DNA from: Vulcanimicrobiota bacterium
GTDB taxonomy: Bacteria; Vulcanimicrobiota; Xenobia; Xenobiales; JADMJV01
DNA: 64,000 nucleotides
Reading direction: 5' to 3'
NCBI GenBank assembly: GCA_050250895.1
Contig: JBFWNU010000001.1
Span: forward strand, 3,459,247-3,523,246
Under the pieces are notes generated by a model that worked only from the letters and a program-made list of their open reading frames with translations, searched no databases and was not told the origin of the DNA. The position numbers were made by a program, and so were the translations under genes. Of the stretch, positions 5,783 through 28,335 are shown one piece after another; positions within the stretch are counted from its first letter, which is position 1, and each line of letters opens with the position of its first letter.

Positions 5783-5793
5783 AGGACCGCGGT

Positions 5794-7101: not shown

Positions 7102-7193
7102 GGTGAGTTTCTGACAAAAACATACCGTGCTACCCTTAAAAAAAGCATGAAACGCAGGAACAATGCGCTCGTGGTGTAAGTTCGGCAAAGTCC

Positions 7194-9415: not shown

Positions 9416-10531
9416 ATGCAACGACTGCTCGAGGTTGATCTACTTCTAACCATCCTTCACTCGCTGCCCCACGGACTGCTGGTGGTGGACCGCGAGGGGC
9501 AGCTCATTTTTGCTAACAGCCACGCCGAGGAACTCTTCGCTTATCCGGGTGGGGCGCTGACCGGCCAGCCGCTGGAGGCGCTCTTGCCCGAGCGGTTTCG
9601 CGCCGGCCACCGAGCGTTTCGCCAGGCCTATTTCGCGGCGCCCGAACAACGCGCCATGGGCGAGGGCCGCGACCTCTTCGGATTGCGCCGCGACGGCACG
9701 GAATTTCCCATCGAGATCGGGCTCAATCCTCTGAGCGTCGAGGACGATTTGCTGGTGGTAGCGGCCATTGTCGACATTACCCGGCGCAAAGAGCACGAAC
9801 TACGACTGGCCCGAGCCTTTCACACTGCCGAAGAGGTCAACCGCGAGCTGCGACAGTTGACCTACGGCGTCTCTCACGACCTGACCGCTCCTTTGCGTAG
9901 CATCAGCGGCTTCGTTCAGATACTCAAGCGCAAGTGTGCTGAGCTCGATGCCGGCTCGCAAGAGCTGATCGACCGGACCGTGGCCGCGGTCGTCATGATG
10001 CAGGAGCAGTTGTCGCAGCTGCGTGACAACGCAGCCGTGGATGCCCGCAGCCGGCCTTTCACCGAAGTCGATCTCAACGAGGTCATGGGCACCGTCCAGA
10101 TGGCTCTTGGCGCTTCCATCGAAGAGAGCGGAGCCGAGATTCACTGCGACCAGCTGCCCTTCGTGCTGGGCGACCGTGCTCAGTTGATTCAACTCTTCCA
10201 GAACCTGGTCGGCAACTCCATCAAATACCAGCAGCCTGGCCGCACTCCCAAGGTCAGGATCGGGTTCGACGAGTTCAGGTTTTCGGTGACGGATAACGGC
10301 ATCGGGGTGCCGGCTGAGGATTGGGAGCGAGTCTTCATCCTGTTCGAACGCGCTCATGGTCAACCTTACCCGGGCACCGGCATCGGACTGAGCACTTGCC
10401 GCAAGGTGGTGGAGCGGCACGGCGGCAAAATCTGGGTAGAAACCTCCTCGACAGAGGGCACCCAGATCTGCTTTACTCTAGAAGCGGAGAAAGGATCTCA
10501 ACGTGAAGCGAAATCTGATCATGCTCGTTGA
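9416..10531 (+). CDS. PAS-domain sensor histidine kinase
   Basis: N-terminal PAS-like region (GLLVVDREGQLIFANSHAEELF). H-box YGVSHDLTAPLRSI. N and G boxes (GNSIKY, DNGIGV, GTGIGLS). Confidence 0.85.
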   Translation: MQRLLEVDLLLTILHSLPHGLLVVDREGQLIFANSHAEELFAYPGGALTGQPLEALLPERFRAGHRAFRQAYFAAPEQRAMGEGRDLFGLRRDGTEFPIEIGLNPLSVEDDLLVVAAIVDITRRKEHELRLARAFHTAEEVNRELRQLTYGVSHDLTAPLRSISGFVQILKRKCAELDAGSQELIDRTVAAVVMMQEQLSQLRDNAAVDARSRPFTEVDLNEVMGTVQMALGASIEESGAEIHCDQLPFVLGDRAQLIQLFQNLVGNSIKYQQPGRTPKVRIGFDEFRFSVTDNGIGVPAEDWERVFILFERAHGQPYPGTGIGLSTCRKVVERHGGKIWVETSSTEGTQICFTLEAEKGSQREAKSDHAR

Positions 10532-10916
10532 TGACAGCTTCAACGACGCACTCCTGGCGCAAGAGGCTGTCTCGCTAGCAAACCTTCAGGTCGAGCTTCG
10601 CCATGTCGAAAGTGGGCAAGCCTGCCTGGGTGAACTCAAAAACGCCGACCACCCTCGCCCCGACCTGGTCCTGTTAGACTTGAACATGCCCGGAGTCAAC
10701 GGCTTCGAAGTGCTCAAAGCCTTGCGCGACGATCCCGAGCTTCGTCCCTTGCCAGTGGTCGTGCTGACCAGTTCAGATGCGCCAGACGATGTAGCTCAGG
10801 CCTATGAACTCGGCTGCCGTTCCTACATCAGCAAGCCGGTAGACTTCGACCGTTTCATCCGTGTGCTCGAGCGGCTCTACCATTACTGGTTCGGCACGGT
10901 GGTCTTGCCGGGATAG
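10503..10916 (+). CDS. Single-domain response regulator (receiver)
   Basis: GTG start. IMLVDDS acidic pocket, LLDLNMPGVNG phospho-acceptor Asp, SYISKP lysine. Overlaps the kinase gene by 29 nt. Confidence 0.85.
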   Translation: MKRNLIMLVDDSFNDALLAQEAVSLANLQVELRHVESGQACLGELKNADHPRPDLVLLDLNMPGVNGFEVLKALRDDPELRPLPVVVLTSSDAPDDVAQAYELGCRSYISKPVDFDRFIRVLERLYHYWFGTVVLPG

Positions 10917-10922
10917 CCGGGC

Positions 10923-12014
10923 GTGATCTACCTCGATTGGGCCGCCACTGCTCCCCTTCGGCCCGAGGCGCTCGAGGCCATGTTGCCTTACTTGCAGACG
11001 CGTTTCGGAAACCCCTCTGGCTTGCATCGTTTGGCCCGGCAGGCTCGCCAGGCGGTCGAGTCGGCGCGGGAGAAGGTGTGCACCCTGACGGGGGCCAGTA
11101 CGGTGGTCTTCACCTCAGGGGGCACCGAGGCCATCAATCAGGCCATCGCCGGCCTGGCCGGCGGAGGGCATCTGGTCACCAGCACTGTCGAGCACAGCGC
11201 CGTGCTGCGCGCCAGTGAGCGGTCGCAGCGGGTGGACCGGGTGGCCGTCGATGGCGAGGGCCGCTGGAGCCAGGCCGAGGTATTGGCTCGGCTAAAGCCC
11301 GACACAAGACTGGTCAGTTTGATGCAGGCCAACAACGAGGTGGGGGCCGTCTTTCCCCTCGAAGGCCTGCGAGCGGCCCTGCCCGCCGGGGTGCGCCTGC
11401 ACGTCGACGCCGTGCAGGCGGTGGGCCGCTTGCCTCTCGCCGAGGCCGATTGCCTGTCGATCTCGGCTCACAAGTTCGGAGGCCCCAAGGGGGTGGGGGC
11501 CAATCTCTACTTTGGAGAGGTCGAACCCACGGCCATCCTGGTGGGTGGTGAGCAGGAGGGCGGATGGCGCTCGGGCACCGAGAATGTGGCTGGCATCGTG
11601 GGTCTGGCCACGGCTCTCGAGTTGGCTCTCGGCGAGCAGGCTCAGGTAGTCGACCGTCTCGAGGGTTTGAGTCAGCGTCTGCTAGAGCTGTTGCCCGATT
11701 TTCCCCCGACCGGGCCCACTCACCATCGCCTGCCTGGGCTGGTGAGTGTGCTGGTCGAGGGCATTCACGGAGAGGCCCTGGTGGCGGCGCTCGACCAGGC
11801 CGACGTGGCCGCCTCGACCGGTTCGGCGTGTAGCCTGGCCAGACCAGGCGTATCCCATGTCTTGCAGGCCATGGGTTATCCGGTGGAAAAGGCGCGCTCG
11901 AGTTTGCGACTGAGTCTTGGGTCGCAAACCACTATGGAAGAGGTCGAACAGGCCGCGGTCCGGTTGCTCGCTTGCGTCAAGCGGCTTCGGAGCCTGGCCG
12001 GCAAAGATGTATAG
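10923..12014 (+). CDS. Cysteine desulfurase (NifS/IscS-like, class V aminotransferase)
   Basis: IYLDWAATAP N-terminus, SAHKFGGPKG PLP-lysine motif, SSLRLSLG near the C-terminus. 363 aa. Confidence 0.88.
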   Translation: MIYLDWAATAPLRPEALEAMLPYLQTRFGNPSGLHRLARQARQAVESAREKVCTLTGASTVVFTSGGTEAINQAIAGLAGGGHLVTSTVEHSAVLRASERSQRVDRVAVDGEGRWSQAEVLARLKPDTRLVSLMQANNEVGAVFPLEGLRAALPAGVRLHVDAVQAVGRLPLAEADCLSISAHKFGGPKGVGANLYFGEVEPTAILVGGEQEGGWRSGTENVAGIVGLATALELALGEQAQVVDRLEGLSQRLLELLPDFPPTGPTHHRLPGLVSVLVEGIHGEALVAALDQADVAASTGSACSLARPGVSHVLQAMGYPVEKARSSLRLSLGSQTTMEEVEQAAVRLLACVKRLRSLAGKDV

Positions 12015-12369
12015 CGAAGCAGTTCTCGAGCATTTCCACCAGCCAGCCGGTGTGGGCCGACTGGAAAACTACGACGGGCGGGCCCGTTGCTCGAACCCGG
12101 TTTGTGGCGACGAGGTCGAGTTATGGCTAGCTTTGGAGGCCGGCAAAGTGGCCGAATTCGCCTTTCAGGCCAGCGGTTGCGTGGCCACGGTGGCCAGCCT
12201 GAGCTGTCTGTGCGGTCTGGTCAAGGGCGCAACTCTCGAGCGCGCAATGACTTTAACCAAAGAGGACCTTCTCGATCAGTTGGGGGGGCTTCCGAGGAAC
12301 AAAAGCCACGGGGCGGCTTTGGCCATCTCCACCCTGCGCGCGGCGCTGAAGGAAGCAGGCGTTGAATGA
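12007..12369 (+). CDS. IscU/NifU N-terminal-like Fe-S scaffold protein
   Basis: ATG at 12007 overlaps the desulfurase stop by 8 nt. MYSEAVLEHFHQP..., conserved Cys (NPVCGDEVE, SGCVAT). The track ORF start at 11917 lies inside the upstream gene. Confidence 0.82.
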   Translation: MYSEAVLEHFHQPAGVGRLENYDGRARCSNPVCGDEVELWLALEAGKVAEFAFQASGCVATVASLSCLCGLVKGATLERAMTLTKEDLLDQLGGLPRNKSHGAALAISTLRAALKEAGVE

Positions 12370-12462
12370 ATTTCAGAGCTGCCGGTCGCGAGGCGGCGCG
12401 TTTTTTTCCTACAGGCACGAACAGGCGCTCCTTGTTTGATTGTAACGCCATCGGAAAGGTTG

Positions 12463-12468
12463 TATAAT
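12463..12468 (+). promoter_or_regulatory. Candidate -10 box (TATAAT) 8 nt upstream of the ATG at 12477
   Basis: A perfect TATAAT with no SD between it and the ATG. This would give a leaderless or near-leaderless mRNA. Confidence 0.3.
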
Positions 12469-12476
12469 ACCTGCAG

Positions 12477-12800
12477 ATGAAAAAGGTCTACGTCGCCCGG
12501 AAACAGCAACAGGCCGAGGCCGCCCAACTCAAGCAGAAGGCCCTCGAACCGCAAGAGAGGCATTGTCATATCCTCGACAAGAAAGTCAACATCTTAGTCG
12601 AGTATCCTGACTACAAGAATCCCCACTACAAAGGGCCTGAGGGCGCGATCTATTGCGAGAATATCATCGAGTGTTTTCAGAATAACATCGAATGCCGCTA
12701 CAGCGGGATCTCGCCGCTCTATCCCGACCCCTTCATCCCGCGCGAGAAGAAGCCAGACGAAGAGACCGAGGGCGAAGAAGAGGCAGCACCCGAAGAATAG
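12477..12800 (+). CDS. Small hypothetical protein with four Cys and an acidic C-terminal tail
   Basis: 107 aa: basic, coiled N-terminus, Cys at HCH, YCEN, ECF and ECRY, then a tail EKKPDEETEGEEEAAPEE. Noticeably less GC-rich than its neighbours. No recognisable family. Confidence 0.5.
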   Translation: MKKVYVARKQQQAEAAQLKQKALEPQERHCHILDKKVNILVEYPDYKNPHYKGPEGAIYCENIIECFQNNIECRYSGISPLYPDPFIPREKKPDEETEGEEEAAPEE

Positions 12801-15028: not shown

Positions 15029-15118
15029 GGAGAGTTGGCCGAGCGGTTGAAGGCGGTGGTCTTGAAAACCACTTTGGGGGTAACCTCAACGGGGGTTCGA
15101 ATCCCTCACTCTCCGCCA
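15029..15118 (+). tRNA. tRNA-Ser (anticodon UGA), CCA encoded
   Basis: Acceptor GGAGAGT/ACTCTCC. Anticodon stem GTGGT/ACCAC with loop CTTGAAA (anticodon TGA). Long variable arm. T-arm GGGGGTTCGAATCCCTC. Discriminator G plus CCA. Confidence 0.92.
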
Positions 15119-15120
15119 TA

Positions 15121-15146
15121 AAAACCCCGAGCAATCGGGGTTTTTT
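15121..15146. terminator. Bidirectional rho-independent terminator
   Basis: AAAACCCCGA-gcaa-TCGGGGTTTTTT, with an A-run on one side and a T-run on the other. It lies between tRNA-Ser (+) and the end of the minus-strand sulfotransferase gene. Confidence 0.75.
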
Positions 15147-15160
15147 CGTGAGAGGGGGAT

Positions 15161-15955
15161 TCAAGTCCCCCGCAGTCGTATCGCGGTTTCTCGTTGCAAA
15201 CGCTTGGCCTGGGTCAGCAACCGATAATCCCAGGGAAAGTCATGCTCGACCCTGGCCTGAATGCTGGGCGTCAGAGACTGAAATTTGTCGACCACCTCGT
15301 CCTGGCGGGGGTGCTGCATGCCCAGTTGAACCGAGGCGCCGGCTACCCGGCGGCGGGTGTAGGCGAGGGGCAGGCCCATGCTCGAAAACAGGTGGGGCAG
15401 GTCGTGGTCGAGCGAATCGGCCAGACCCACGTACCAGCAGCGTTCCAGCAAGGCCAGCGCGGCGCGATACGCCTGTTCGCCGGCCAGGGCAAGCCCGGTA
15501 AATCGCCGAGCATAGAAGTCGCAGGCGCTACTGCGCGCCTGTTTGAGGAAGCAGTCGCCATACCACTGTTCGAAAGAGGCAACCGCCAGGCCCCGGCTGC
15601 GGGCGAAGTTGTAGCGGCTGACGCAGCGCTCGGCCGGGTCGCGCAGCACCGTAAAATAGCGGGCTTCTCGGCCGCCAAATCGTTGATGAATTCCATAGTA
15701 GGTCCGGTGCCCGCACAGCACTCGCACCTCGGCCAGTTCAGGGGCGGTCAAATCTTCAAATTGCGGTAGGCCGTGGTGCAGGCGATCTTGATAGCCCCAC
15801 TGGCCTAGATGAAATACCGCTCGATTCCATTCCAAGTGCTGCCAGAGGTGTCCGTTGATGGTCGTGCCGGCCGCCTTGGGCAGATGGAGAAAGACCCAAA
15901 GGACAGGCGCGCTAGTCGGCAAGGCCGACCCCGTCTTGAGCGAGCTCGAGAGCAA
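15161..15955 (-). CDS. Sulfotransferase (family-2-like)
   Basis: 5'-PSB-like FLHLPKAAGTTI and 3'-PB-like TVLRDPAERCVSRY. The ATG at 15955 overlaps the upstream gene by 44 nt; an alternative TTG sits at 15922. Confidence 0.75.
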   Translation of the reverse strand: MLSSSLKTGSALPTSAPVLWVFLHLPKAAGTTINGHLWQHLEWNRAVFHLGQWGYQDRLHHGLPQFEDLTAPELAEVRVLCGHRTYYGIHQRFGGREARYFTVLRDPAERCVSRYNFARSRGLAVASFEQWYGDCFLKQARSSACDFYARRFTGLALAGEQAYRAALALLERCWYVGLADSLDHDLPHLFSSMGLPLAYTRRRVAGASVQLGMQHPRQDEVVDKFQSLTPSIQARVEHDFPWDYRLLTQAKRLQRETAIRLRGT

Positions 15956-17753
15956 TGATAGAACTGGCGTGCATCAACTTGCCGATTCCCACCTCAGAGG
16001 TTTCCATGGCCGACAGAAGTTTGGCCACATTGATGTAGCGAAACGGATGTCGCTCGATTCCCTCGCTCCGCCATTGACGGGCCAGCAAAGCTAGCGCCTC
16101 GCGCACATCCTCCACCCCCTGTTGGGCGCGGACAGGTTCAGCCTTGCTGTTAAAGCGAATCGAGGCGGGCAAGAGTTCGGCCGCCCCAACGCGCATCAGC
16201 CAGCGCGTGACCCCGTCGCGGCAGAAAAGGCGGGGGGGTAGGGCCAGGCAAAACTCTAGAGCCCTCCGATCGAGCAAAGGATAGGCGTAGGCCACACCAT
16301 GCTCTCTGCCACTGGCATACCACTGTTCGAGCCGGGCGGTAGTGCCACCCTGGCGCAGCAGCTGCAGCTGGGTTTCGTGCACGCCGTAAGGCAGGACCCA
16401 GCGAGTGGGGTACCGTTCGCCCCTTCGACTCAGCTCTTCTCTGAGAAAAGGTGAAGGCTTACGGCTGGCGCCGAAGGCCAGCAAGTCGGAAAGATGGTGG
16501 CGCCAGCTTCTGGGGGCCCAGGGCAAGAGGCGATGGAACAGCAGTGGTAAGATGCCCCAGCGCGCGATCTGTTTCCAGGGTTTGCCCCGAGCGCATGCCT
16601 GACGATAACACTCGCGCCATTGGCCCCGCTTGAGCAGGCTGGCCAGCATGCCTCGTCCGTTGAACGAGAACCCCTCGTCACCGCCCCAACCCGACAAAAT
16701 GACCGGCAAACCCCGACGTTGGGCCTTTTGCTGAATGGCCAGTTCCGACACAAGGGCCCTCAAGGTGGGTTGGCAGGCGGGATTGCGACGAAAGAAGTCG
16801 GCCAGGGTCGAAGGGTCATGGCAGGTGGTCTCGAGCTGCATGCCCTCGCTTTCACAGAACTCGAGCAGGGTCTGGAACTCTTGTTCACCCCGGCACTTTT
16901 CGGTCAACCAGGTGAAGGCCAGCGGCGGCGCCAGGCCCTGACGACGACGGCTGCGCGCCGTGAGCGCCGCTACGGCTGACGAATCCAGGCCGCCGCTAGC
17001 GTGCACGGCCACGGCCGGGTAGCCCTGAATGCGATCCTCGACCACTCGCTCGAGCAGTTCTCTGGTGGCTACCAGGTAATCGTCGTCTTCGGCCAGTTGT
17101 AGCTCTGGCAGGTCGTCAGGCCGCCAATACCGAGTGAGACTCAATCCGGCCGCCGTCCATTTGAGGGTGTGGGCGGGTGGCACCTTGAAGATGTGCTCGT
17201 AAAAGGTGCGCTGCGGGTCGACGAAGGCTTTGCGGGAGAGGCTCGTGAGCAAATAGGTCTCGTCGAGCTGGGTCGACGCCTCGGTGGCCAGGAGGGCGCG
17301 CACATCGCTGGCCAGCAGAAAGGCCGTGCCGACGCGGCTGTAGTACAGAGGGCGGCTGCCGATATGATCTCGGCCACACAGCAACGCTTGAGTGCGCTGG
17401 TCCCATAGCGCGAAGGCGAAGTCTCCGTAGAGCTTGTTGGGAAAGGTTTCTTGCCAGTGATGATAGGCGGCCAGCATCGTCTGGCTGGGGTTTGGACTCT
17501 GGCCCCCGACCGAGACCGGACAATCCAAGCGGGCTTCGGCCACCAGGGCCGCTTTTTCATCGGCTACGGGTGAGGCGTTGGCGGCCTCGGGGCCGGTCTG
17601 GTGGAATTTGAGATAGCCCAGGGCAACTCCGGGAGCACACCAGCGGAAGGTGCCATGGGGACCAAAACCGAGCCCCAGAAGCCGTTGCAACATCGCCTCC
17701 AGGCGACCCTGACAGTCTCTGGCCACCGGGTCGACGACCGCCACGATGCCCAC
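15912..17753 (-). CDS. Asparagine synthetase B-like protein, candidate lasso peptide cyclase (C protein)
   Basis: 613 aa with a GTG start. The N-terminus GIVAVV lacks the catalytic Cys of true AsnB (MCGI). PP-loop VHASGGLDSSAVAAL. Sits next to a PqqD-family gene and a lasso-type precursor. Confidence 0.8.
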   Translation of the reverse strand: MGIVAVVDPVARDCQGRLEAMLQRLLGLGFGPHGTFRWCAPGVALGYLKFHQTGPEAANASPVADEKAALVAEARLDCPVSVGGQSPNPSQTMLAAYHHWQETFPNKLYGDFAFALWDQRTQALLCGRDHIGSRPLYYSRVGTAFLLASDVRALLATEASTQLDETYLLTSLSRKAFVDPQRTFYEHIFKVPPAHTLKWTAAGLSLTRYWRPDDLPELQLAEDDDYLVATRELLERVVEDRIQGYPAVAVHASGGLDSSAVAALTARSRRRQGLAPPLAFTWLTEKCRGEQEFQTLLEFCESEGMQLETTCHDPSTLADFFRRNPACQPTLRALVSELAIQQKAQRRGLPVILSGWGGDEGFSFNGRGMLASLLKRGQWRECYRQACARGKPWKQIARWGILPLLFHRLLPWAPRSWRHHLSDLLAFGASRKPSPFLREELSRRGERYPTRWVLPYGVHETQLQLLRQGGTTARLEQWYASGREHGVAYAYPLLDRRALEFCLALPPRLFCRDGVTRWLMRVGAAELLPASIRFNSKAEPVRAQQGVEDVREALALLARQWRSEGIERHPFRYINVAKLLSAMETSEVGIGKLMHASSIIALELAQDGVGLAD

Positions 17754-17857
17754 CTCAGCTCGCTCTCTTCGCCTGACGCATCCGCGCGTTTTTCCACGCC
17801 GCCTTGGCGGCTACCTTTGAACCAGGGTCTGGCACTCCGTGGGCGAATTGGCACAGC

Positions 17858-18136
17858 ATGACACAGTTGAAGCCGACCAGTATCGTAACGCCCAGTGAGA
17901 GCGTCGTGGCCACAGAATTAGATGGAGAGATCGTGATGATGTCGGTGGAATCGGGCAACTACTTCGGGCTCGACGCCATCGCCACCGATGTCTGGAAGTT
18001 GGTCGATGGTCAGCGCTCGGTGGCTCAGATCGTGGACCAGTTGTGCCAGGAGTATGAGGTGGACGGGCAAGAGTGCCTCGACCACGTGCTCGAGCTGTTC
18101 GAGCGGATGCACGAACAGGGTGTTATCAGGGCATAG
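17858..18136 (+). CDS. PqqD-family peptide chaperone (RRE, lasso B1-like)
   Basis: 92 aa from the first ATG: ELDGEIVMMSVESGNYFGLDAIATDVWKLVDGQRSVAQIVDQLCQEYEVD...LELFERMHEQGVI, a typical PqqD/RRE pattern. Confidence 0.82.
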   Translation: MTQLKPTSIVTPSESVVATELDGEIVMMSVESGNYFGLDAIATDVWKLVDGQRSVAQIVDQLCQEYEVDGQECLDHVLELFERMHEQGVIRA

Positions 18137-19019
18137 TCTTGCGGATGTGTCCCGTGATGGCGAACCGGTAGTGAGAAAACTCCGGGGCGCTGGGGAAGAC
18201 GGGGCGTAGCTCATGCAGGCGCGCGCTTGGAAAAACCAGTAGGGCGTTGTCGGTGTGGACGAAAGTGGTGAAGCCGACCGGGTCGCAATCGCCGCTGGTC
18301 GTGTCTTCGTCGTAGAGGCGAAATTCGCCGCCCTGGAAGCGAGCGGGGCCTAGCTCGAAGGTGTAGACGTAACTCAAGACCCGGTCGGGGTGCTGGCTGC
18401 TGCGGTCGCGGTGGATTGGAAAGGCACCTCCGGGTCCATAACCCGTAAGCTTTCCCTCGAACCGGGCGAGGTTGAACTTGGGCACGGCCAGGTTAACCCA
18501 ATGCTCGGCGCAGATCTCCTCGAGCTGGGTGCAAATCCAATCTCTGATACCCGCCAGCGGCTGGGACCTGGTTCGTCGAAAGGAATGGTCAGCCAGGCGA
18601 AGATGGCCGCTCTCGATGGGGGTGAACTGGTCAGGCTGAGCCTGCACGTAGTTTACAAGGGCCCCGTGCAGCTCGAGGGGGAGCCATTGTTGTCGGCGGT
18701 GGAATGGGGAGGGAGCAATACCCTGGAGGGGCGGTGGACAAGCCCCTTGCAGGATGCTGAGGGCGATCGCGTTGCGCACCTTGCGGGGGTCGGCCGCCAG
18801 GGCAGCCTGGTAGTATCGCTCGGCCTCGTCTAGTTGGCCGCTACACCGAGCCAGGTGGCCGCGCAATCCAAGCACGATGGCGGGGTCGCAGTCACGGTTC
18901 TGATCGAGCCAGGCGCCCGCCCTCGCGAAGTCGCCTTGGGCCAACAAGACCCGAAAGAATTCTCGGATGTCAGGTTTTGCGGTCAAGGGGCTGGCGTTTC
19001 TGGAAGAACTCCTGGCCAT
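18126..19019 (-). CDS. 2OG-Fe(II) oxygenase-like protein with N-terminal TPR-like segment
   Basis: HxD...H facial triad candidates (FPIHRD ... ARLHELRPV) and a GGEFRLYD jelly-roll motif. The N-terminus has one or two TPR-like units. ATG at 19019 is preferred because the longer track ORF overlaps the divergent kinase gene. Confidence 0.65.
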   Translation of the reverse strand: MARSSSRNASPLTAKPDIREFFRVLLAQGDFARAGAWLDQNRDCDPAIVLGLRGHLARCSGQLDEAERYYQAALAADPRKVRNAIALSILQGACPPPLQGIAPSPFHRRQQWLPLELHGALVNYVQAQPDQFTPIESGHLRLADHSFRRTRSQPLAGIRDWICTQLEEICAEHWVNLAVPKFNLARFEGKLTGYGPGGAFPIHRDRSSQHPDRVLSYVYTFELGPARFQGGEFRLYDEDTTSGDCDPVGFTTFVHTDNALLVFPSARLHELRPVFPSAPEFSHYRFAITGHIRKTMP

Positions 19020-19062
19020 CCTCCAGGAGGAGGTTGCAGCTTCGCAGGCGCAGGTGGGTCTC

Positions 19063-19884
19063 ATGGAGCATTGGTACACTTGCCACGGCTTGTTGATTCG
19101 TTCCGAGCTAGCTTTGCCAGAACTGCGCCAGGCCAATCCTGGTGAGACCGCGCTCTCGATTGTGCAGGGCCATCTTCCCCCCGGCCGCCCAGGTCGCCAG
19201 GTCGAGGAGCAATTGGCCACGCTGCGTATCCCCGGGGTGGCCAATCTTCGCATCGCCGAGGGTCGACAGATCACCGTCGAGTTGGCTCCGCGTGCTACAG
19301 TCGAGCAGGTGCGACCCTATCTGCTAGGCACGGGTCTGGCTGCCATCGTGCATCAGAGAGGACTGCTTCCTTTGCATGCCAGCGGCCTGCTAATGGATGC
19401 ACAGGGCGTTGTGCTGGCCGGAGTCAAGGGCAGCGGTAAGTCGACTTTGGCTGCCTACGGCTTGAGTTCGGGCTACCACCCTCTTTGTGACGACGTGGCC
19501 GTGATTCGATTCTCGCCAGCGCCCGAGATCGTCGCCGGGCCCGGTCGCCTCTGGTTAAACGACGATAGCCTCGAACAAGTGGGTCGCCGACCAAGCTGCG
19601 CGATCAACAAAGGACTCAAACGCGGCCTCGATTTTGAAGCTCGCGGGGCCTATTCGATGAGCAAGATCTTCATCCTGGACCCAAAATCAAGCCAATGTGT
19701 TCGCCTGCGAGGGCTCGAAGCACTCGGGGCTCTCCACAAGTGTACCTTCAGGAAGGGCTTCATCCCCGCGCGCGGCCATGTAGAACGGCTCTGCCACCTG
19801 TGCCGCCACGTGCCCGTCTATCGCTTGGGGCGAAGTGAGGTTTGGAGCCTGTCGGACCTGCTTACGCAGGCCATTCGCACCTAG
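19063..19884 (+). CDS. HPr kinase-related kinase (HprK-related kinase A/B type)
   Basis: Start MEHWYTCHGLLIRSELALPEL. LPLHASGL followed by P-loop GVKGSGKSTLAAYG and CDDVAVI. The start is inferred from the typical N-terminus of this family. Confidence 0.75.
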   Translation: MEHWYTCHGLLIRSELALPELRQANPGETALSIVQGHLPPGRPGRQVEEQLATLRIPGVANLRIAEGRQITVELAPRATVEQVRPYLLGTGLAAIVHQRGLLPLHASGLLMDAQGVVLAGVKGSGKSTLAAYGLSSGYHPLCDDVAVIRFSPAPEIVAGPGRLWLNDDSLEQVGRRPSCAINKGLKRGLDFEARGAYSMSKIFILDPKSSQCVRLRGLEALGALHKCTFRKGFIPARGHVERLCHLCRHVPVYRLGRSEVWSLSDLLTQAIRT

Positions 19885-20015
19885 CTCGCTCTATAGAAGG
19901 CACCATCCTGGTCTTCGATGTCATAAGGGCCACCCAGGGTTGCTGCCACTACCGGCACCGGTAGGAACTTGAACTCGGGTTTCGACCAGGGTTTCTTTTT
20001 TTTAGGGTCACTCAT
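19881..20015 (-). CDS. Candidate lasso-type RiPP precursor peptide (44 aa), not in the ORF track
   Basis: My translation: ATG at 20015, TAG at 19883-19881, giving MSDPKKKKPWSKPEFKFLPVPVVAATLGGPYDIEDQDGAFYRAS. Thr at -2, Gly1, Glu7/Asp8, bulky F13/Y14/R15 and a C-terminal Ser. It is the last gene of the minus-strand tailoring operon. Confidence 0.7.
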   Translation of the reverse strand: MSDPKKKKPWSKPEFKFLPVPVVAATLGGPYDIEDQDGAFYRAS

Positions 20016-20037
20016 GTGACCACACTTCGCGGTCGAT

Positions 20038-20694
20038 TTAGTCTACCCTCTGTAGCCAACAAAAACTGTCTTCGCCACCGCTTAGAGAGCGCGAATAGCC
20101 GAACCGGGAAAAATCGCGAGCGTAGAATTCACCTACCATCTGCTCGAGTTCGGCGTCGTAAGCTTCGAATCCGAGACCCGCCGAAGCATTCGCCCTCGGC
20201 AGTCCGTCGAAGGGTAGTTGCAGGCGGCCAAAGAGCCCGGCCAGGTCTTGCTCGAGGTGTTCGAAGCGGCAGACGACATCCACGGCCAGTTCGTCTTCGA
20301 TCAACAGGGTGTCGACCATAGGCCGCAGCAGGAGACGCGCCCACTTGTCCTGGCTTGAAACCAATCGTTTGAGGACTGACCTGGGATCCTCGGGCAGCGG
20401 GGTGTCTCGATACAAGAAGGCGGCCGCCGAGAGAAAACGGCTGTAAGGATTTCGAACCACCGCGAATTTCAGATACTCATCCCAGGGGGGCAAGAAGGGC
20501 CGCAACTGGGTAGCGCTGACATGCCCGTGCCGCAGTGCGGCCAGGGCCTGCACCGGCGCGCACCGTGGTCCGAAAAGCAGGCTCTGTTCCCAGTCGGTGG
20601 CGGCCAGATGCGGTCGCAGGCTTTGACGGATCGCGTGGGAAGCCGTGCGGGGGACGGCCAGAAAGATGAACTGGTGCCGGAACGAGACGATCAA
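20038..20694 (-). CDS. Sulfotransferase (family-2-like)
   Basis: FIFLAVPRTASHAIRQSL (5'-PSB-like), VVRNPYSRFLS (3'-PB-like), RFEHLEQDL. 4-nt overlap with the upstream gene. Confidence 0.75.
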   Translation of the reverse strand: MIVSFRHQFIFLAVPRTASHAIRQSLRPHLAATDWEQSLLFGPRCAPVQALAALRHGHVSATQLRPFLPPWDEYLKFAVVRNPYSRFLSAAAFLYRDTPLPEDPRSVLKRLVSSQDKWARLLLRPMVDTLLIEDELAVDVVCRFEHLEQDLAGLFGRLQLPFDGLPRANASAGLGFEAYDAELEQMVGEFYARDFSRFGYSRSLSGGEDSFCWLQRVD

Positions 20695-21509
20695 GGCTTG
20701 GGCACCAGGTAGCCAAACCTGGCCATGGTTTGGCCGTGTTCGCGTTCGAGCAGCTCTCTTTGAGCTTCATCCAAATGATTGCGGCCGTGGCCGGCTCGGC
20801 CGCTTCGAAAGAAGCTGCCGGAACGGTGCGGACCCTCTCGAAAACCGTCGGCTTGCTCTTGTGCTTGCAGACGATCGAAGGTGGAAAACTCGATAGCTCG
20901 GGCCACTCGTTGTTCTTCGCGCGGTTGGTTCAAAAACTCGAGCGCCGAACCAAAAGTCTGGTGAGGGTGAGCCAGCAGGTCTTCGTAGCGGATCACCAGC
21001 ACCCGAAGTTCGGCAGCCAACCAGCTCTCGACATGGCCACTCCAGCTGCCTACCAGTTCTGGGACCTGCAACCCACGATTGCCCTGAGCCAGGCGATAAC
21101 CGGGGTCGGCCATCCAGCCCGTCACCCGCGCGAGACTCGCGTTGCTGTGATGGGCAAACGAGACGGCCACGTCGTGTGGGTCGCGAACGAGGTAGATGAC
21201 TCCGAAGGTCGCCTCGGGGGGAAAGAGTCTCGGTTGATAGAGATCGTGAACCTTCAAAAAGAGCGGGTCGGTGGTCTGGGCGGCCAGGTGGCGGTAGGCG
21301 ATGGCCCTCCACTCGGGAAGTTCTTCCTCGGTAGCATCCGCCGTTTTTAGTTCCAGCGTGGCATCGAGCAACGCCCGACTGCTGCCCCAGGGTAAGGTGC
21401 CCAGCGCGTTGATCGAGACCGGCACTTTGGCCTGACTGAGATAGTTGGCTAGCAAGACCCTGAGCCAGGTATTGCCGGACTTGGGATACGAGGCAAGCCA
21501 AACGATCAA
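20691..21509 (-). CDS. Sulfotransferase (Sulfotransfer_1-like, aryl/cytosolic type)
   Basis: IVWLASYPKSGNTWLRVLL (PKSGTTW-type 5'-PSB) and IYLVRDPHDVAVSFAHH (RDPRDxxVS-type 3'-PB). Confidence 0.82.
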   Translation of the reverse strand: MIVWLASYPKSGNTWLRVLLANYLSQAKVPVSINALGTLPWGSSRALLDATLELKTADATEEELPEWRAIAYRHLAAQTTDPLFLKVHDLYQPRLFPPEATFGVIYLVRDPHDVAVSFAHHSNASLARVTGWMADPGYRLAQGNRGLQVPELVGSWSGHVESWLAAELRVLVIRYEDLLAHPHQTFGSALEFLNQPREEQRVARAIEFSTFDRLQAQEQADGFREGPHRSGSFFRSGRAGHGRNHLDEAQRELLEREHGQTMARFGYLVPKP

Positions 21510-22342
21510 GAACGAATCCTTTCTGCCAGTTCGGGCAACCGACCGGCCGGCACCCTGGCTCGCCAGAACTCGAGGTCAGAACCGGCCAAGTGACTCGCTT
21601 GACGAAAGTTCTCGCTCATCAGACCCAGGGCCCTCAGACCGGAGCGCGACGGAGTGTATCTGAGCAGAACTTCAAGGCCCTCGCGCCGACTCGACCGGGT
21701 GAGCGAGATTTGCTCGCCATTCCATAGACTGAGGTCATAGACACGTCGAACGAGCACGGGTGTGCCTGGTCGGGCCGGTTTCAGATGTCGCGCCAGGTTG
21801 GGCCGGCGGACCAACCAGTCAGAACCCCTGGGTCGTCCCAGGGTGATGTAGGGTGGGCCCGGCACGAGTCGATTTTCGGCCAGCACCACCAGTTCGTCAC
21901 TGATGAAATCGCAGCCCTGCTGATGCAGCAGATCGATGAGGGTCGACTTGCCCGCCCCGGAGATACCGACAAAGATCATGCCGCCACTTGGGCCGACCAC
22001 AGCGCTGGCCTGAAGGACCGCTCTGCCGGACAGAGTCAGCAGCACACCCAAGACATTCCCTAGAAGAAACGTCTCGATATCCTGACTGGTCACTTCTGCC
22101 TCGCTCTCGACGGTGACCTGATGGTTGGGGCGGATCAAGTATCTGGCCACTTTGGGCACGTGAAGGAGTAGCAGGCCGTCGCTGGTCTCCCAGAGCGGAC
22201 CGTGGCGGCGGCCGCCTGGCAGGCGTCGGGGTACGGGGCCGCGTCGGACCGTCCAATCGGGAGCGGTGTCGGTGGGAGTCAAGCGTTGGCTGGACCAATC
22301 CAGGCCCAGGGCCAGGCCAAAAGCGTTGTAGACTTCGAGCAT
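21506..22342 (-). CDS. Second HPr kinase-related kinase
   Basis: N-terminus MLEVYNAFGLALGLD, LQASAVV, P-loop GISGAGKSTLIDLL, SDELVVL. 4-nt overlap with the downstream sulfotransferase. Confidence 0.75.
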   Translation of the reverse strand: MLEVYNAFGLALGLDWSSQRLTPTDTAPDWTVRRGPVPRRLPGGRRHGPLWETSDGLLLLHVPKVARYLIRPNHQVTVESEAEVTSQDIETFLLGNVLGVLLTLSGRAVLQASAVVGPSGGMIFVGISGAGKSTLIDLLHQQGCDFISDELVVLAENRLVPGPPYITLGRPRGSDWLVRRPNLARHLKPARPGTPVLVRRVYDLSLWNGEQISLTRSSRREGLEVLLRYTPSRSGLRALGLMSENFRQASHLAGSDLEFWRARVPAGRLPELAERIRS

Positions 22343-22354
22343 CGGTGCGCCTCG

Positions 22355-23179
22355 CTAGCCGCGCAACCGGTAGCCAAAGTTTGCCAGCAGGGCCTCACAC
22401 TCGCCGTAGACCCGGTTGAGTGTCGCCAGATCCTCGCCACTCAAGCGCCCCCACTGTTGCTCGTTCATGTTGCGCAAGGGCTCATCATAGCTTCCTTTGA
22501 CCGGTAGCTGCTGGCGCAGGTCGAGGTCGGCCAGTTGCGGCATCAAGCCGGCGATCTGGGCTTGCACCTGTTGAGGTCGGTCGCACATGTCTTCATAGCT
22601 AAAGAATGTCCCCAGATGGCCATAGCGGCGGAGATTCTCGGCTTGCGCCTCGAGACAAAGGGCCAGGTGGAGAGCGGCCAGAGCCAGGCGCTCCTGACGT
22701 TCGTAACCCGCCAGGCAAAGGCGGCGCGAGATTCCTTCGGCGGTCGCATACGGGTCGCGAACCATGAAAAGGAAGCGAGCATCCGAGAAGCTGTCCACCA
22801 GTTGGTCGACGAGCAGGAGAAAGGGCGGAGACTTCTCGACGAAGACGGTCGCCCCGGCGCTCCGTGAGAAGGCCTGAAAATACCAGGCTCGGCGAGTGGT
22901 CACCCAGTCAAAGTTGGCAGGGTTCTGAAAGGCAGCGACCCATTGTGGCCTGGTGGCCCAGATGGTGGCCGCGCCGAGGGCGCGCGAACTCGGACCGGCG
23001 AAGCCGAAAGTGTGTTGGCCTTCGCGGGGCAGGTTCCAGGTGGCCCGACTGGTGGCCAGAGCGTTTCGCAAGAATGTGCTGCCGCTATTGTTAGGGCAAA
23101 TGACAAAGAGATGATGCTCGACCAGAGTGGGCAGGTCGGCAAGCGCCCCTCGGAAGATCTTGGTGGCCCCGGATTTCAA
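22355..23179 (-). CDS. Sulfotransferase (third sequence type)
   Basis: LFVICPNNSGSTFLRNAL (P-loop-like 5'-PSB) and FLFMVRDPYATAEGISRR (3'-PB-like). Confidence 0.7.
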   Translation of the reverse strand: MKSGATKIFRGALADLPTLVEHHLFVICPNNSGSTFLRNALATSRATWNLPREGQHTFGFAGPSSRALGAATIWATRPQWVAAFQNPANFDWVTTRRAWYFQAFSRSAGATVFVEKSPPFLLLVDQLVDSFSDARFLFMVRDPYATAEGISRRLCLAGYERQERLALAALHLALCLEAQAENLRRYGHLGTFFSYEDMCDRPQQVQAQIAGLMPQLADLDLRQQLPVKGSYDEPLRNMNEQQWGRLSGEDLATLNRVYGECEALLANFGYRLRG

Positions 23180-24105
23180 AGCTCGGATAGGTTGGCCTCA
23201 GGGAAGGTCGTCGTGGCCGGGTTTCGGTTTTGGCCCGAATCCCCCCTGCTCGAGCTGTCGTGGGGGCGCACCCTTAGAGCTTGCAGGTGGGTGGACGCGT
23301 CTAGAAAGCTGCGCTGCCAACGAGCCCAGCAGTGGAGAAACCTTGGCGAGGCCAGCCCTCGCCAGAGGGCCGAACTGGACCATGGCTTGACCGGAGTATT
23401 GTAATGCAAGACCCTGGCCTGGAGCCAGGAAATACCGCTGTGGGCCGAGATGGTCTGGGCGTGGAGTAGTAGATAATTGAATTCACAGCCGACCAGGGTT
23501 TGCTTGCCCTGGAGCAGCCGATTGAGAACCAGTTGGTCGGTGTGCGGTTGCTCGACGCCGGACCAGGTGTCGGGCCTCAGCAAACCCAGCGCCGCCTGAT
23601 AGGTTGATGGTTCGAATTGGCTCGGATCGACCACCATGAATCCCGAGTTGAAGGTGTTCTTCAAGCTGCCGCCGGCCAGCGGCGAGTAGGTCACCGGGTC
23701 GCGAGGCAGACCTCGGTAGTAGGCACCGTCTCCGGCACAAAGGAGGGGACCCGTGTGGTCCAGGACGGGCTCGATCGAATCAAGAAAGAGCAGGTCGCTG
23801 TCGCAGAAGAACAGGCGTTCATAGCGGGTCCACCGGAAGAGTTCCAAAGAATAGAAACGAGCCTTGCGATCGTTTAACTCAGGCCGAGCCAGGACCAACT
23901 CGCCCACCTGTGCTTGAAGTTCGCGGCTGACCGGCACCAACCGGGCCCCGGTAGCTTTTTCGAGCAATCTGCGCGAAGAACCGGGCAGACGGTGATGCAG
24001 CACCAGGATGTCTCCGCCGAACCAGGGGTTATGGCGGCGGAAGGAGTGGAGCATCACCAACGTGCCTAGCACAAAGCTCTGACTGGTGACGGTAATCAGG
24101 GCCAT
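23176..24105 (-). CDS. Glycosyltransferase family 8-like
   Basis: ITVTSQSFVLGTLVMLHSF, DxD (FFCDSDLLFLD), FNSGFMVVD. Start MALITV at 24105 is preferred; alternatives at 24120 and 24162. Confidence 0.72.
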   Translation of the reverse strand: MALITVTSQSFVLGTLVMLHSFRRHNPWFGGDILVLHHRLPGSSRRLLEKATGARLVPVSRELQAQVGELVLARPELNDRKARFYSLELFRWTRYERLFFCDSDLLFLDSIEPVLDHTGPLLCAGDGAYYRGLPRDPVTYSPLAGGSLKNTFNSGFMVVDPSQFEPSTYQAALGLLRPDTWSGVEQPHTDQLVLNRLLQGKQTLVGCEFNYLLLHAQTISAHSGISWLQARVLHYNTPVKPWSSSALWRGLASPRFLHCWARWQRSFLDASTHLQALRVRPHDSSSRGDSGQNRNPATTTFPEANLSEL

Positions 24106-24197
24106 TCGCGAATGGGCCATAGGGTCAGGTTGGCTGGAAGCGGCCTTCGTCCCTTTGAACAACCGGGCAGCGATTCTGCAATCAGGGCGGTTAGACC

Positions 24198-24311
24198 TCA
24201 GCTCATCGCTTCGGAGATCTGGTTTTCGATCAGCCAGATGAGAATAGGATCCGGCCGGGTCGGGACTTCTAGACCCTGGTTACTGAATTGGTCCGTGCCA
24301 AGAACAAACAT
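24198..24311 (-). CDS. Small ORF (37 aa) with SD; speculative second peptide
   Basis: AGGAGG, 4 nt, then ATG at 24311: MFVLGTDQFSNQGLEVPTRPDPILIWLIENQISEAMS, ending in Ser. It is the first ORF of the minus-strand operon. No family recognised and it could be spurious. Confidence 0.25.
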   Translation of the reverse strand: MFVLGTDQFSNQGLEVPTRPDPILIWLIENQISEAMS

Positions 24312-24579
24312 GCGTCCTCCTGTGGGTTGCTTGCCTATCCACTGTCTCGTACGCGGTCTCCCTGGCAAACCCGATCCCGGATGGCATGGCTCCATCCGGC
24401 GGGGGAGCAACCGGCGGACCCACCCACCGATGGCGAACATGTTAGGAAACGTTCGATGTTACAAACTTTTTACGATTCTTCCATTGCCTCAAGATCCTTC
24501 AGGCAGTAGAGTAGTGAGGTGGGGGCGTATCGATGGCCACGCGCGCGGGTGGCCCTGACTTGAGAGGAAAGACAAACAC

Positions 24580-25818
24580 ATGGCAGTTCCTGGCATCGCT
24601 TTCGGGGGGCAAAATTTCGCAACCAATCAACTTTTTCAACGGCCGCTCAGCAGCCCACCGCTACAGCAGATCGCCGGAAACCCTCAGTTAGCCGGTCAGT
24701 TTCAGCAGCTTCTTCAGGTCCTGATCGGCGCCCTCTCGCAGCTCAGCCAGGGCTACCAGTCCTTCGGCGGCTACCCCACCCCTGGTTTCCCCAATCCAGG
24801 CTTCCCTGGACAGCCCCCCTTCGGAACTCCTCCCTTCGGCACTCCCACCCCGGGGACGCCGATTTTCGGCGGCTACAACCCACCCGTGGGCGGCTATCCC
24901 ACCCCCGGCACGCCGACCTTTCCCCCCGCACCCGGTGGCGCCAGCCCCACCGATCCTCGCTTTTTCAACTGGGGCGTAGCCGCCCATAACGGCAACGCCA
25001 AGCAAGCCGTCAGCACCCAACAGCGCACCAGCATCAGCGGCCTCGACGACGGCCAGCGCGCCATTCTTCACCTCTGGGGTCGTCAGATGACGGCCGGCGG
25101 CAAGCAAGACGGCAGTATCTATTTCAACGTGCTCAATGACAAGACCGGCGCCTTCACCCCGGCCGAGCACGCCCTGGTCGAGCAGGCCTACGCCCGCGAG
25201 ATGGCGATGTATGGCGGCGTCACCGGTAAAGAGCTAGATCGCGCTTTCTTCGGCCTCTACGGCCAGATGACCGGCGAAGACATCTCGGGCAAGTATGGCA
25301 ACGCGCCGGTCCACTTCTCTAACGGCCAGCAACTGGATCTCAGCAACAATAACCAGGCTCTGGGAGAGTTCGGCAACACGGTGATGCGCCTGTGGGGTCA
25401 CGACCGTCTCGACAACGGCCGCAACGACGGCTCGATCCTGGCCTTCAGCCTGCAGAATCCCGACGTTGCCTTCGACTCGGCGGCCTCGGGGGCCAACCAG
25501 CAGACCATCGAGTCGCTGGCTGCCGCCGATATGGCCGACGACGGCGTGTTGAACAACAGCAGCCTCTCCAAGGCTTTCAGTCAGACCCTCGACCAGGCCT
25601 ACTTCGGAGCCCCCTCTGGCAACAATCAGCAGGTGCTCCAGGGGGCCGGCATCAGCACTGTCCAGGTCGGCTCGATTCTCGATAAGATCAAGAACTCGCC
25701 CATCCCGGGTGTGCCGGCCGGAGTCGACATCACCAACATCGCCAACATCGGCAAATGCCCGGTCCTGGGTCAGTCGGTTCAACAGAGCGGTCTCGGCGGC
25801 GTTGGCTTCTTCGGCTAA
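24580..25818 (+). CDS. Hypothetical Pro/Gly-rich protein with duplicated LWG...DGSI module
   Basis: 412 aa. GYPTPG/FGTP repeats at residues about 70-115. Two similar modules (AILHLWGRQMTAGGKQDGSIYFNVLN and TVMRLWGHDRLDNGRNDGSILAFSLQN). No signal peptide recognised. Confidence 0.6.
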   Translation: MAVPGIAFGGQNFATNQLFQRPLSSPPLQQIAGNPQLAGQFQQLLQVLIGALSQLSQGYQSFGGYPTPGFPNPGFPGQPPFGTPPFGTPTPGTPIFGGYNPPVGGYPTPGTPTFPPAPGGASPTDPRFFNWGVAAHNGNAKQAVSTQQRTSISGLDDGQRAILHLWGRQMTAGGKQDGSIYFNVLNDKTGAFTPAEHALVEQAYAREMAMYGGVTGKELDRAFFGLYGQMTGEDISGKYGNAPVHFSNGQQLDLSNNNQALGEFGNTVMRLWGHDRLDNGRNDGSILAFSLQNPDVAFDSAASGANQQTIESLAAADMADDGVLNNSSLSKAFSQTLDQAYFGAPSGNNQQVLQGAGISTVQVGSILDKIKNSPIPGVPAGVDITNIANIGKCPVLGQSVQQSGLGGVGFFG

Positions 25819-28009: not shown

Positions 28010-28335
28010 TTCCACCGGGCGATCGCCGCCCCTGGCCTTGGCCAGCCCGCTGGCCGTGCCCCAACCGGGGTGGGCGAAATCCCCCAGCCGGGGTGGGCGA
28101 TCGCTGGCCTGGGCCAGCCCGCCAGCCGTGGCCCCACCCGGAGTGGGCGAAATCCCCCAGCCGGAGTGGGCGATCGCTAGCCTTGGCCAGCCCGCCAGCC
28201 GTGGCCCCACCCGGAGTGGGCGAAATCCCCCAGCCGGGGTGGGCGATCGCTGGGCTTGACCACGGCCGGTGGCCGTGGCCCCACCCGGGGTGGGCGAAAT
28301 CCCCCAGCCGGAGTGGGCGATCGCTGGCTCCCGCG
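28010..28335. repeat. Intergenic tandem repeat, about 73-bp unit, 4-5 copies, each carrying GGGCGATCGC
   Basis: The GGGCGA(TCGC) anchor recurs at 28017, 28095, 28168, 28241 and 28315. GGGCGAAATCCCCCAGCCGG recurs at 28072, 28145, 28218 and 28292 (periods 73, 73, 74). Each unit is an internal duplication of about 36 bp. Confidence 0.9.

Follow-up and report, generated by a model that had tools for sequence, protein, structure and literature searches.

The 64,000-nucleotide stretch of DNA analysed here, from contig JBFWNU010000001.1 of a Vulcanimicrobiota bacterium and called the window below, contains a tightly packed, gap-free block of ca. 9 kb (15161–24162). One of its eleven genes is a minus-strand open reading frame (ORF) of 44 codons, 19881–20015, which an earlier note on this DNA had read as the precursor of a lasso peptide. 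The evidence described below indicates that this ORF is the precursor of a kinase-associated, paeninodin-like lasso-type RiPP (a peptide synthesised by the ribosome and then modified post-translationally), a reading to which a probability of ca. 0.8 is assigned. Along the minus strand, the genes of the block are ordered GT8, Sulfotransfer_3, K2, Sulfotransfer_1, Sulfotransfer_2, the 44-aa ORF, K1 (plus strand), oxygenase, PqqD (plus strand), cyclase, and a fourth sulfotransferase-like gene. By coordinate they are:

15161–15955, minus strand: fourth sulfotransferase-like gene, downstream of the cyclase (Pfam Sulfotransfer_1 at 21.9 bits, cut-off 22; PKAAGTT and RDP motifs)
15912–17753, minus strand: lasso cyclase (C) homologue, asparagine-synthetase-like (Pfam Asn_synthase, 2.5e-25)
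17858–18136, plus strand: PqqD-family RiPP recognition element (RRE; B1), leader-binding chaperone (Pfam PqqD, 7e-21)
18126–18947, minus strand: TPR and 2-oxoglutarate (2OG)-Fe(II) oxygenase, prolyl-hydroxylase-like (Pfam 2OG-FeII_Oxy_3, 2.4e-10, plus TPR; HxD motif)
18967–19884, plus strand: HprK-related kinase K1, the paralogue resembling the paeninodin kinase (Walker A GVKGSGKS; PF27840 ScmC; NCBIfam HprK_rel_A/ScmC, weak)
19881–20015, minus strand: probable precursor peptide gene (A) (ATG, 44 codons and TAG; homologous peptides in syntenic clusters), with leader codons 1–27 at 19935–20015, the 17-aa core GGPYDIEDQDGAFYRAS at 19884–19934, and the stop at 19881–19883
20038–20694, minus strand: Sulfotransfer_2-type sulfotransferase, directly upstream of the precursor gene (Pfam, 3e-07)
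20691–21509, minus strand: Sulfotransfer_1-type (aryl/phenol-type) sulfotransferase (Pfam, 7.3e-27; PKSGNTW and RDP motifs)
21506–22342, minus strand: second HprK-related kinase, K2, assigned by kinase family membership (Walker A GISGAGKS; NCBIfam HprK_rel_B, weak)
22355–23179, minus strand: Sulfotransfer_3-type sulfotransferase (Pfam, 5.1e-10)
23176–24162, minus strand: GT8 glycosyltransferase (Pfam Glyco_transf_8, 2.1e-13; DSD motif; called start at 24105)

All eleven genes are intact. The cyclase and the two kinases keep their catalytic motifs, as do the sulfotransferases, the oxygenase and the GT8 enzyme. The GT8 gene is the first of a minus-strand operon whose last gene is the precursor. 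The fourth sulfotransferase-like gene is a 253-aa gene call and the oxygenase, a candidate hydroxylase, one of 273 aa. The start of K1 may be at 19063 instead (an alternative gene call, also 273 aa).

The precursor ORF translates as MSDPKKKKPWSKPEFKFLPVPVVAATLGGPYDIEDQDGAFYRAS, with the leader–core junction KKKKPWSKPEFKFLPVPVVAATL / GGPYDIEDQDGAFYRAS. There is an in-frame TAG ten codons 5’ of the ATG and no ATG, GTG or TTG between them, so the start is unambiguous, and the ORF is present exactly as it had been described. The remaining five frames across 19881–20015 are all interrupted by stops. The Sulfotransfer_2 gene ends 22 nt upstream of the ORF, and the TAG of the convergent K1 gene occupies 19882–19884, giving an overlap of 4 nt (19881–19884); the placement at the 3’ end of the tailoring operon was likewise as reported. 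Gene calls for the ORF already exist on two assemblies, the 3.95-Mb contig and an independent 13-kb assembly.

The design elements of a lasso precursor that the earlier note had named can all be read in the translation – Thr26 at position -2, Gly28 as the first residue of a 17-aa core, and Glu7/Asp8 in the window where ring acceptors sit. The leader carries W10-S-K-P13-E-F15, with Trp rather than Tyr in the WSKP motif. The suggestion that this is an RRE-binding motif was well founded, as WSKPEF fits the published consensus [Y/W]xxPx[L/V/I/A/F/Y] (PMC13381572). The C-terminus reads FYRAS, with Ser as the last residue, as expected of a kinase phosphorylation site. The earlier note had passed over this terminal Ser and the conserved Y-R-x-S tail to which it belongs, the expected handle for the kinase.

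The pattern alone is weak evidence for a precursor, and the comparative evidence is stronger. A regular expression combining the leader motif, Thr(-2), Gly/Ala/Ser/Cys at position 1 and Asp/Glu at positions 7–9 has ca. 1.0 chance matches expected per 64 kb of Markov-2 random sequence. With a C-terminal Ser added, ca. 0.09 are expected and one is observed, occupying the only gap in the cluster.

Close relatives of the cluster were not found – the best homologue of the kinase is 37% identical and the best homologues of the cyclase are 37–39% identical; cyanobacterial cyclases are among its homologues. The loci retrieved with the kinase form a large family with a kinase, a cyclase and a PqqD protein. 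Most of them also encode the leader protease B2 and an NTP-transferase, many have a Sulfotransfer_1 gene, and they hold small ORFs that combine a [W/Y]xxPx-hydrophobic leader with a terminal Ser. The K2-type kinase is usually a neighbour of the Sulfotransfer_1 gene across these loci. K1 is 26–37% identical to the kinases of Paenibacillus and sphingomonad lasso clusters, and is nearer to them than is K2. One of the related loci, L006 from a member of the Rikenellaceae, has a kinase, a Sulfotransfer_1 gene, B2 and PqqD without a cyclase (10001–12500, 16454–16597, 19030–19179), and two precursor copies (…KWSKPKLFSGKGIGFLGLGQVQSSTGPYGTPS) whose cores have no Asp or Glu; the locus is probably a linear, non-lasso relative of this family.

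The seven loci with the nearest cyclase relatives (L083–L088, plus L028) were compared with the window. A called small gene is present in each of L083–L088. Four of these loci (L083, L084, L085 and L087) have a gene set like that of the window: cyclase, Sulfotransfer_2/3, GT8, Sulfotransfer_1, kinase, and PqqD or oxygenase. Orthologues of the Sulfotransfer_3 gene (1e-64 to 2e-84) and of the GT8 gene are found in all four, orthologues of the Sulfotransfer_2 gene adjoin the cyclase in L083 and L084, and homologues of the oxygenase are found in L086 and L087. In L086 (17496–19391) a single 631-aa protein consists of a K2-type HprK-like kinase fused to a TPR and 2OG-Fe(II) oxygenase, which ties K1 and the oxygenase, divergent neighbours in the window, to one pathway.

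The small-gene peptides of these four loci, leader before core, end in PRKSWAKPTIETIIAVKQTE / SGGLAGKPEDATYRPS, EPKKAWSRPTVETVIAVKKTK / GGPLQPQPEDSVYRPS, PAKKTWHQPRITEIGSLQSRTQ / SGLIGNKESPPVYTTS and EKRPWSKPRIIPLHRMARTN / SGEFVQSHENEEPSYRPS. The design shared by the nearest relatives is a K-K/R-x-W-S-K/R-P leader, Thr(-2), Gly/Ser1-Gly2, Asp/Glu at positions 7–9, and a C-terminal Y-R-x-S. K-K/R-x-W-x-x-P and Thr(-2) are common to the window peptide and five of the peptides from L083–L088; Gly is at core position 2 in all of the nearest-relative peptides, and the acidic residue at 8–9 and the Y-R/T-x-S tail are found in most. An eight-sequence alignment shows no variation in the Trp, the Pro, Gly2 or the terminal Ser. 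The L084 and L087 peptides are 38–41% identical to that of the window, and nine residues (K7, W10, S11, P13, T26, G29, Y41, R42 and S44) are invariant among the three. A scan of metagenomes with a three-sequence alignment of precursors gave 143 pattern matches, none of which was confirmed.

Profiles built without the window peptide were run against all 1480 six-frame segments of the window. A leader-only hidden Markov model (HMM) from 30 other loci ranked the precursor ORF first of the 1480 (E = 0.0096), as did an HMM of the clade (E = 3.9e-4, with the runner-up at 0.32). Conservation of the peptide in syntenic clusters had been proposed as a check on the lasso reading; it was found, with homologous small genes in L083–L088 and L028 and a profile that selects the window ORF. 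The earlier note had also remarked that the leader motif is offset by one residue from the canonical spacing to Thr(-2). The offset is no departure from the family, in which W-15 to W-18 is natural variation: the Trp is at W-15 in the Paenibacillus type, W-16 in the nearest relatives, and W-18 in the window, just outside the W-15 to W-16 of related precursors and with a two-residue insertion.

These comparisons bear on whether the ORF is a chance, untranslated frame in the spacer between two convergent genes. It is short, without a Shine-Dalgarno (SD) sequence and with a weak contrast in GC between codon positions 1, 2 and 3 (0.56/0.42/0.60, compared to ca. 0.67/0.47/0.72 in neighbouring genes), and the looser regular expression finds about one match per 64 kb by chance. 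However, the shape of the codon GC is neighbour-like, at a lower GC because of a run of Lys, and SD sequences are rarely used in this genome anyway. No RNA structure competes with the ORF, profiles made from the precursors of other clusters select it uniquely, and the invariant W, P, G and C-terminal Ser and the shared Y-R-x-S tail are all present in an ORF that fills the sole gap in a dedicated cluster. A chance origin is very improbable; the ORF is very likely a genuine A gene and probably the functional precursor of the cluster product. By its sequence, it is a newly found member of the kinase-associated lasso precursor family. A structured RNA in place of a precursor gene was considered and rejected (fold z = -0.59; Rfam finds a tRNA only). 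Among 20 gene starts sampled (e.g. 7194, 10923, 20015 and 24580), almost none had a Shine-Dalgarno sequence, lepA included, and many cluster genes use TTG or GTG starts; SD-led initiation seems to be of minor use in the host organism.

Two of the proteins encoded beside the ORF are homologues of lasso-pathway proteins. The best NCBIfam model for the cyclase homologue is the lasso isopeptide cyclase NF033535 (lass_lactam_cya), with 243 bits compared to 156 for true AsnB; the PP-loop of this homologue reads SGGLDS, and its N-terminus, MGIV, is without the glutaminase Cys2. The PqqD protein matches solved lasso RREs in PDB, TbiB1 (5v1u, E = 9.3e-13) and PbaB1 (9x90_B, E = 2.6e-10). Together with the homologous precursors in syntenic clusters, these two proteins support the lasso-precursor reading of the earlier note.

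Several observations weigh against it. The cyclase score of 243 bits is below the NF033535 cut-off of 525, and the PqqD protein scores 73.8 bits against the lasso PqqD chaperone model NF033536, which has a cut-off of 80. Homologues of the peptide are absent from two billion-scale searches – a word-indexed search of 5.8 billion proteins returned the self match only, and an exhaustive HMMER search of 1.84 billion representatives returned only the self match and eukaryote-like tandem-repeat proteins with spurious multi-stretch matches – so its conservation rests on distant small ORFs located by hand. The gene is at the 3’ end of its operon and converges on the kinase gene. A scan for a promoter or terminator near the ORF found nothing above the expectation from shuffled sequence, and no SD sequence is upstream of it, which is uninformative as most genes here have none. 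Three genes usual in such clusters were not found in the 64-kb window: a B2 (PF13471) protease, by motif regular expression, tblastn (best E = 2.2) or iterated profile; a lasso-type ATP-binding cassette (ABC) exporter, by tblastn with the ABC part of the L028 protein (nothing at E ≤ 1); and a PsmN-type NTP-transferase, by tblastn with the L002 NTP_transf_5 protein (noise only). The B2 profile detects B2 in 37 related loci, and its best match in the window has E = 0.9.

The missing B2 protease and transporter, which the earlier note had passed over, leave the canonical gene set incomplete, and the label ‘lasso’ is therefore drawn from the cyclase, the RRE and the design of the peptide. The gap is not peculiar to the window. 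B2 is also absent from the retrieved flanks of five of the seven nearest relatives (L083–L087), and is present only in L088 and L028. In L028, from a member of the Vicinamibacterales and sister to the window cyclase, an ABC exporter has a B2 domain fused to its N-terminus (5626–7941); B2 and the exporter, both of which the window is without, may come and go together. All-vs-all clustering of the B2-less loci found no conserved substitute protease, the only families shared being the kinase, cyclase, PqqD and sulfotransferase families. The idea that the B2-less cyclases form a single clade was rejected. They are scattered in the cyclase tree among B2-containing sisters, and the absence of B2 within ca. 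10 kb is thus recurrent, not a single ancient loss. Thr(-2), which is a B2 recognition element, is kept in the window and in L083–L085 and L087, which hints at the action in trans of a B2 from elsewhere in the genome. There is precedent for doing without these genes: pseudomycoidin forms in E. coli and B. subtilis without B1 or B2, and Zyubko et al. 2019, who noted a cyanobacterial cluster, as yet uncharacterised, that has a cyclase, a precursor, a kinase and a glycosyltransferase and no B genes, suggested that clusters without B genes have been overlooked (PMC6993621).

One explanation for the gap is that the cluster is a decaying or incomplete remnant, in which B2 and the exporter were lost and the ORF used to be a precursor gene but its peptide no longer undergoes maturation. 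Besides the two missing genes, the orientation of genes scrambled relative to L084 – C(-), B1(+), oxygenase(-), K1(+), A(-) – and the tRNA-Ser gene flanking the cluster would fit this. However, none of the eleven genes shows damage to its frame or catalytic motifs, very distant genomes (cyclase identity ca. 37%) have this gene set too, likewise without B2, a recurrence that implies selection, and the retention of Thr(-2) in the five clusters named fits a protease in trans. Decay is quite improbable on this evidence.

A less remote alternative, though still an unlikely one, is that the ORF is a real precursor whose product is not a threaded lasso but a linear or differently cross-linked peptide – phosphorylated, sulfated or glycosylated in the manner of the linear polyphosphorylated peptides (LPP). 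The lack of B2 in the window and in most of the nearest clusters would agree with this, as would related loci such as L006, without a cyclase and with cores that have no acidic residue; the LPP family itself shows that clusters with an RRE and an HprK-like kinase can yield non-lasso products (PMC13381572). Yet all members of the clade have kept the cyclase homologue, which is intact, the lasso design of Thr(-2), a small first residue and an acidic residue at 7–9 is retained in the core, and the pseudomycoidin cyclase, of the same family, works without B1 and B2. The SpI-like peptidase, NTP-transferase and YxxP leader of LPP are all absent here. The lasso-type reading is preferred, with lower confidence in the threaded topology of the product than in the role of the ORF as precursor, and with confidence lower still in its sulfation.

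Closest among the known systems are two lasso peptides on which HprK-like kinases act as tailoring enzymes, paeninodin from Paenibacillus dendritiformis and pseudomycoidin from Bacillus pseudomycoides. The window shares with them a WxxPx-hydrophobic leader, Thr(-2), a small residue 1, an acidic ring acceptor and an obligatory C-terminal Ser, and also the HprK-like kinase, the discrete PqqD/B1 protein and the asparagine-synthetase-like cyclase. B2 and an ABC exporter are part of their clusters, in most cases together with a PsmN-type NTP-transferase; none of the three is in the window, whereas the window has a second kinase, four sulfotransferase-like genes, a GT8 gene and a 2OG oxygenase. The core sequences are unrelated, and the known systems are from Bacillota while the window is from a genome of 62% GC. 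Kinase lasso clusters of the Sphingobium/Sphingomonas type (L002, L003, L008, L015, L017 and L023) also combine a kinase, a cyclase and PqqD with precursors that have a WxKPE-type leader and end in Ser. Unlike the window, these have B2 and the NTP-transferase but no sulfotransferases, and their cores are rich in Gly, Ser and Ala and have no Tyr; their precursors are polyphosphorylated, according to Zhu et al. 2016 (FEBS Lett) as summarised in PMC8498205.

Two further systems resemble the cluster in part. The B-less putative lasso cluster of Stanieria cyanosphaera PCC 7437, likened here by its published description only, has a cyclase, precursor, PsmK-type kinase and glycosyltransferase and no B2; it has no B protein at all, whereas the window keeps B1 (PqqD), and the sulfotransferase complement is absent from that description (PMC6993621). 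The LPP clusters have the discrete RRE, the HprK-like kinase and the [Y/W]xxP leader in common with the window, indicating that this enzyme pair is modular. Known from Bacillota only, they have no cyclase, and they encode an SpI-like leader peptidase, an NTP-transferase, an MsbA-like exporter and precursors of 35–200 aa with a YxxP leader (PMC13381572). The window has a cyclase and a 44-aa precursor with a WxxP leader, and no peptidase-, NTP-transferase- or exporter-like gene in the cluster.

A pathway can be proposed from these parallels. The PqqD/B1 protein would bind WSKPEF in the 27-aa leader; WxxP is nearly invariant in paeninodin-like precursors and docks in a hydrophobic cleft of B1 in the PbaB1–leader structure (PDB 9x90; PMC13381572). 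An HprK-like kinase would then phosphorylate the Ser17 hydroxyl on the linear precursor, as HprK homologues do with the C-terminal Ser, with few other sequence requirements (PMC8498205). K1, which of the two paralogues is the nearer to the kinases of Paenibacillus and sphingomonads, is the most likely one. A B2 encoded outside the window or a host protease would cut the leader after Thr(-2)-Leu(-1) and expose Gly1, and the cyclase would adenylate Glu7 or Asp8 and join it to the Gly1 amine, making a macrolactam of 7 or 8 residues. Relatives most likely use Glu8 or Glu9 as the ring acceptor; position 9 is Gln in the window, so position 7 or 8 must be used here. The tail QDGAFYRAS (9–10 residues) would be threaded through the ring, with F13, Y14 and R15 as candidate plug residues.

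The remaining steps are more speculative. A Teg12/StaL-like sulfotransferase may O-sulfate Tyr14, the conserved tyrosine in the Y-R-x-S tail, the GT8 enzyme may add a sugar and the 2OG oxygenase hydroxyl groups, and bulky charged groups at the C-terminus may help to lock the thread. In pseudomycoidin, phosphorylation of the C-terminus is followed by glycosylation there, and its bulky C-terminal groups have been proposed as a lock of this kind (PMC6993621). Sulfation of Tyr14 is proposed on three grounds: a likeness to Teg12 and StaL, the co-occurrence of Tyr with sulfotransferases, and a Phe in L088. The best PDB relatives of the Sulfotransfer_1 gene product (20691–21509) are Teg14, Teg12, StaL and cytosolic phenol sulfotransferases. 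The first three act on glycopeptide antibiotics, whose phenolic hydroxyls they sulfate; they share with it the 3’-phosphoadenosine-5’-phosphosulfate (PAPS)-type sulfotransferase fold with the 5’-phosphosulfate-binding (5’-PSB) and 3’-phosphate-binding (3’-PB) motifs, though E = ca. 1e-15 is a likeness at the level of the family only. A Tyr is within the last nine residues of the peptide in 12 of 17 loci with sulfotransferases and in 2 of 14 without (Fisher p = 0.003), a correlation that is uncorrected for phylogeny and with which the presence of GT8 co-varies. L088, without sulfotransferases and GT8, has Phe where the clade has the Tyr of the Y-R/T-x-S tail. Glycosylation of the Tyr or the Ser by GT8, or sulfation of an attached sugar, would fit equally well, and the sequences cannot separate these possibilities. 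The RaxST/RaxX system of Xanthomonas is an example of a tyrosine-sulfated RiPP.

It can be suggested, tentatively and as a doubtful extension, that the window and L083, L084, L085 and L087 belong to a conserved lineage without B2 and exporter in the cluster, in which the Y-R-x-S tail carries a Tyr sulfate, a Ser phosphate and possibly a sugar added by GT8 and further sulfated, these anionic groups lock a short (16–17 aa) lasso, and removal of the leader in trans is the norm.

Judged by its gene content, the cluster is an uncharacterised, conserved variant of the kinase-tailored lasso clusters, without B2 or an exporter and rich in sulfotransferases with a GT8 enzyme. Rules for mining genomes for lasso peptides generally demand B2, so clusters like this one are probably skipped, a bias raised by Zyubko et al. 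2019, and a 44-aa gene is easily lost under size cut-offs. Identification of the precursor makes the cluster testable, with a defined 17-aa core and defined enzymes for co-expression; its value is as a clean experimental entry point rather than as a new principle. The conserved Thr(-2) in B2-less clusters is a handle for distinguishing a distant B2 in trans from a host protease. Sulfation is missing from the lasso modifications named in a 2026 review, which include phosphorylation, glycosylation, acetylation and acylation (PMC13352647). Should the peptide be a substrate of the sulfotransferases, the known modifications would gain sulfation, and engineering could draw on the cluster for two kinases, a GT8 enzyme and three or four peptide-directed sulfotransferases.

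Some features of the arrangement of the block and of its surroundings can also be described. Between 17753 and 20015, five consecutive genes – C, B1, oxygenase, K1 and A – are on alternating strands. The gene ends overlap at 18126–18136 and 19881–19884, and the divergent starts at 18947 and 18967 are 19 nt apart, so transcription of this block must include antisense overlap. A tRNA-Ser gene (anticodon UGA; 15029–15147), followed by a hairpin and a T-run, abuts the left end of the cluster. A direct repeat derived from it was not found on the far side of the cluster, and an island origin is neither supported nor excluded.

At the other end, an 80-aa ORF upstream of GT8 (24198–24440) was considered as a precursor and rejected, as it has no precursor features. 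Divergent from the GT8-to-precursor operon is a gene for a 412-aa Gly/Pro/Gln-rich protein (24580–25818) with no Pfam match, after which come an AraC-type regulator and a methyltransferase. Further along, at 28032–28328, a 73-nt unit is repeated in ca. 4 tandem copies (90% match) that overlap doubtful ORFs only. Each unit has the palindrome GCGATCGC, which occurs 11 times in the window compared to an expectation of 2.7; four of the 11 are inside the array and a fifth is just before it.

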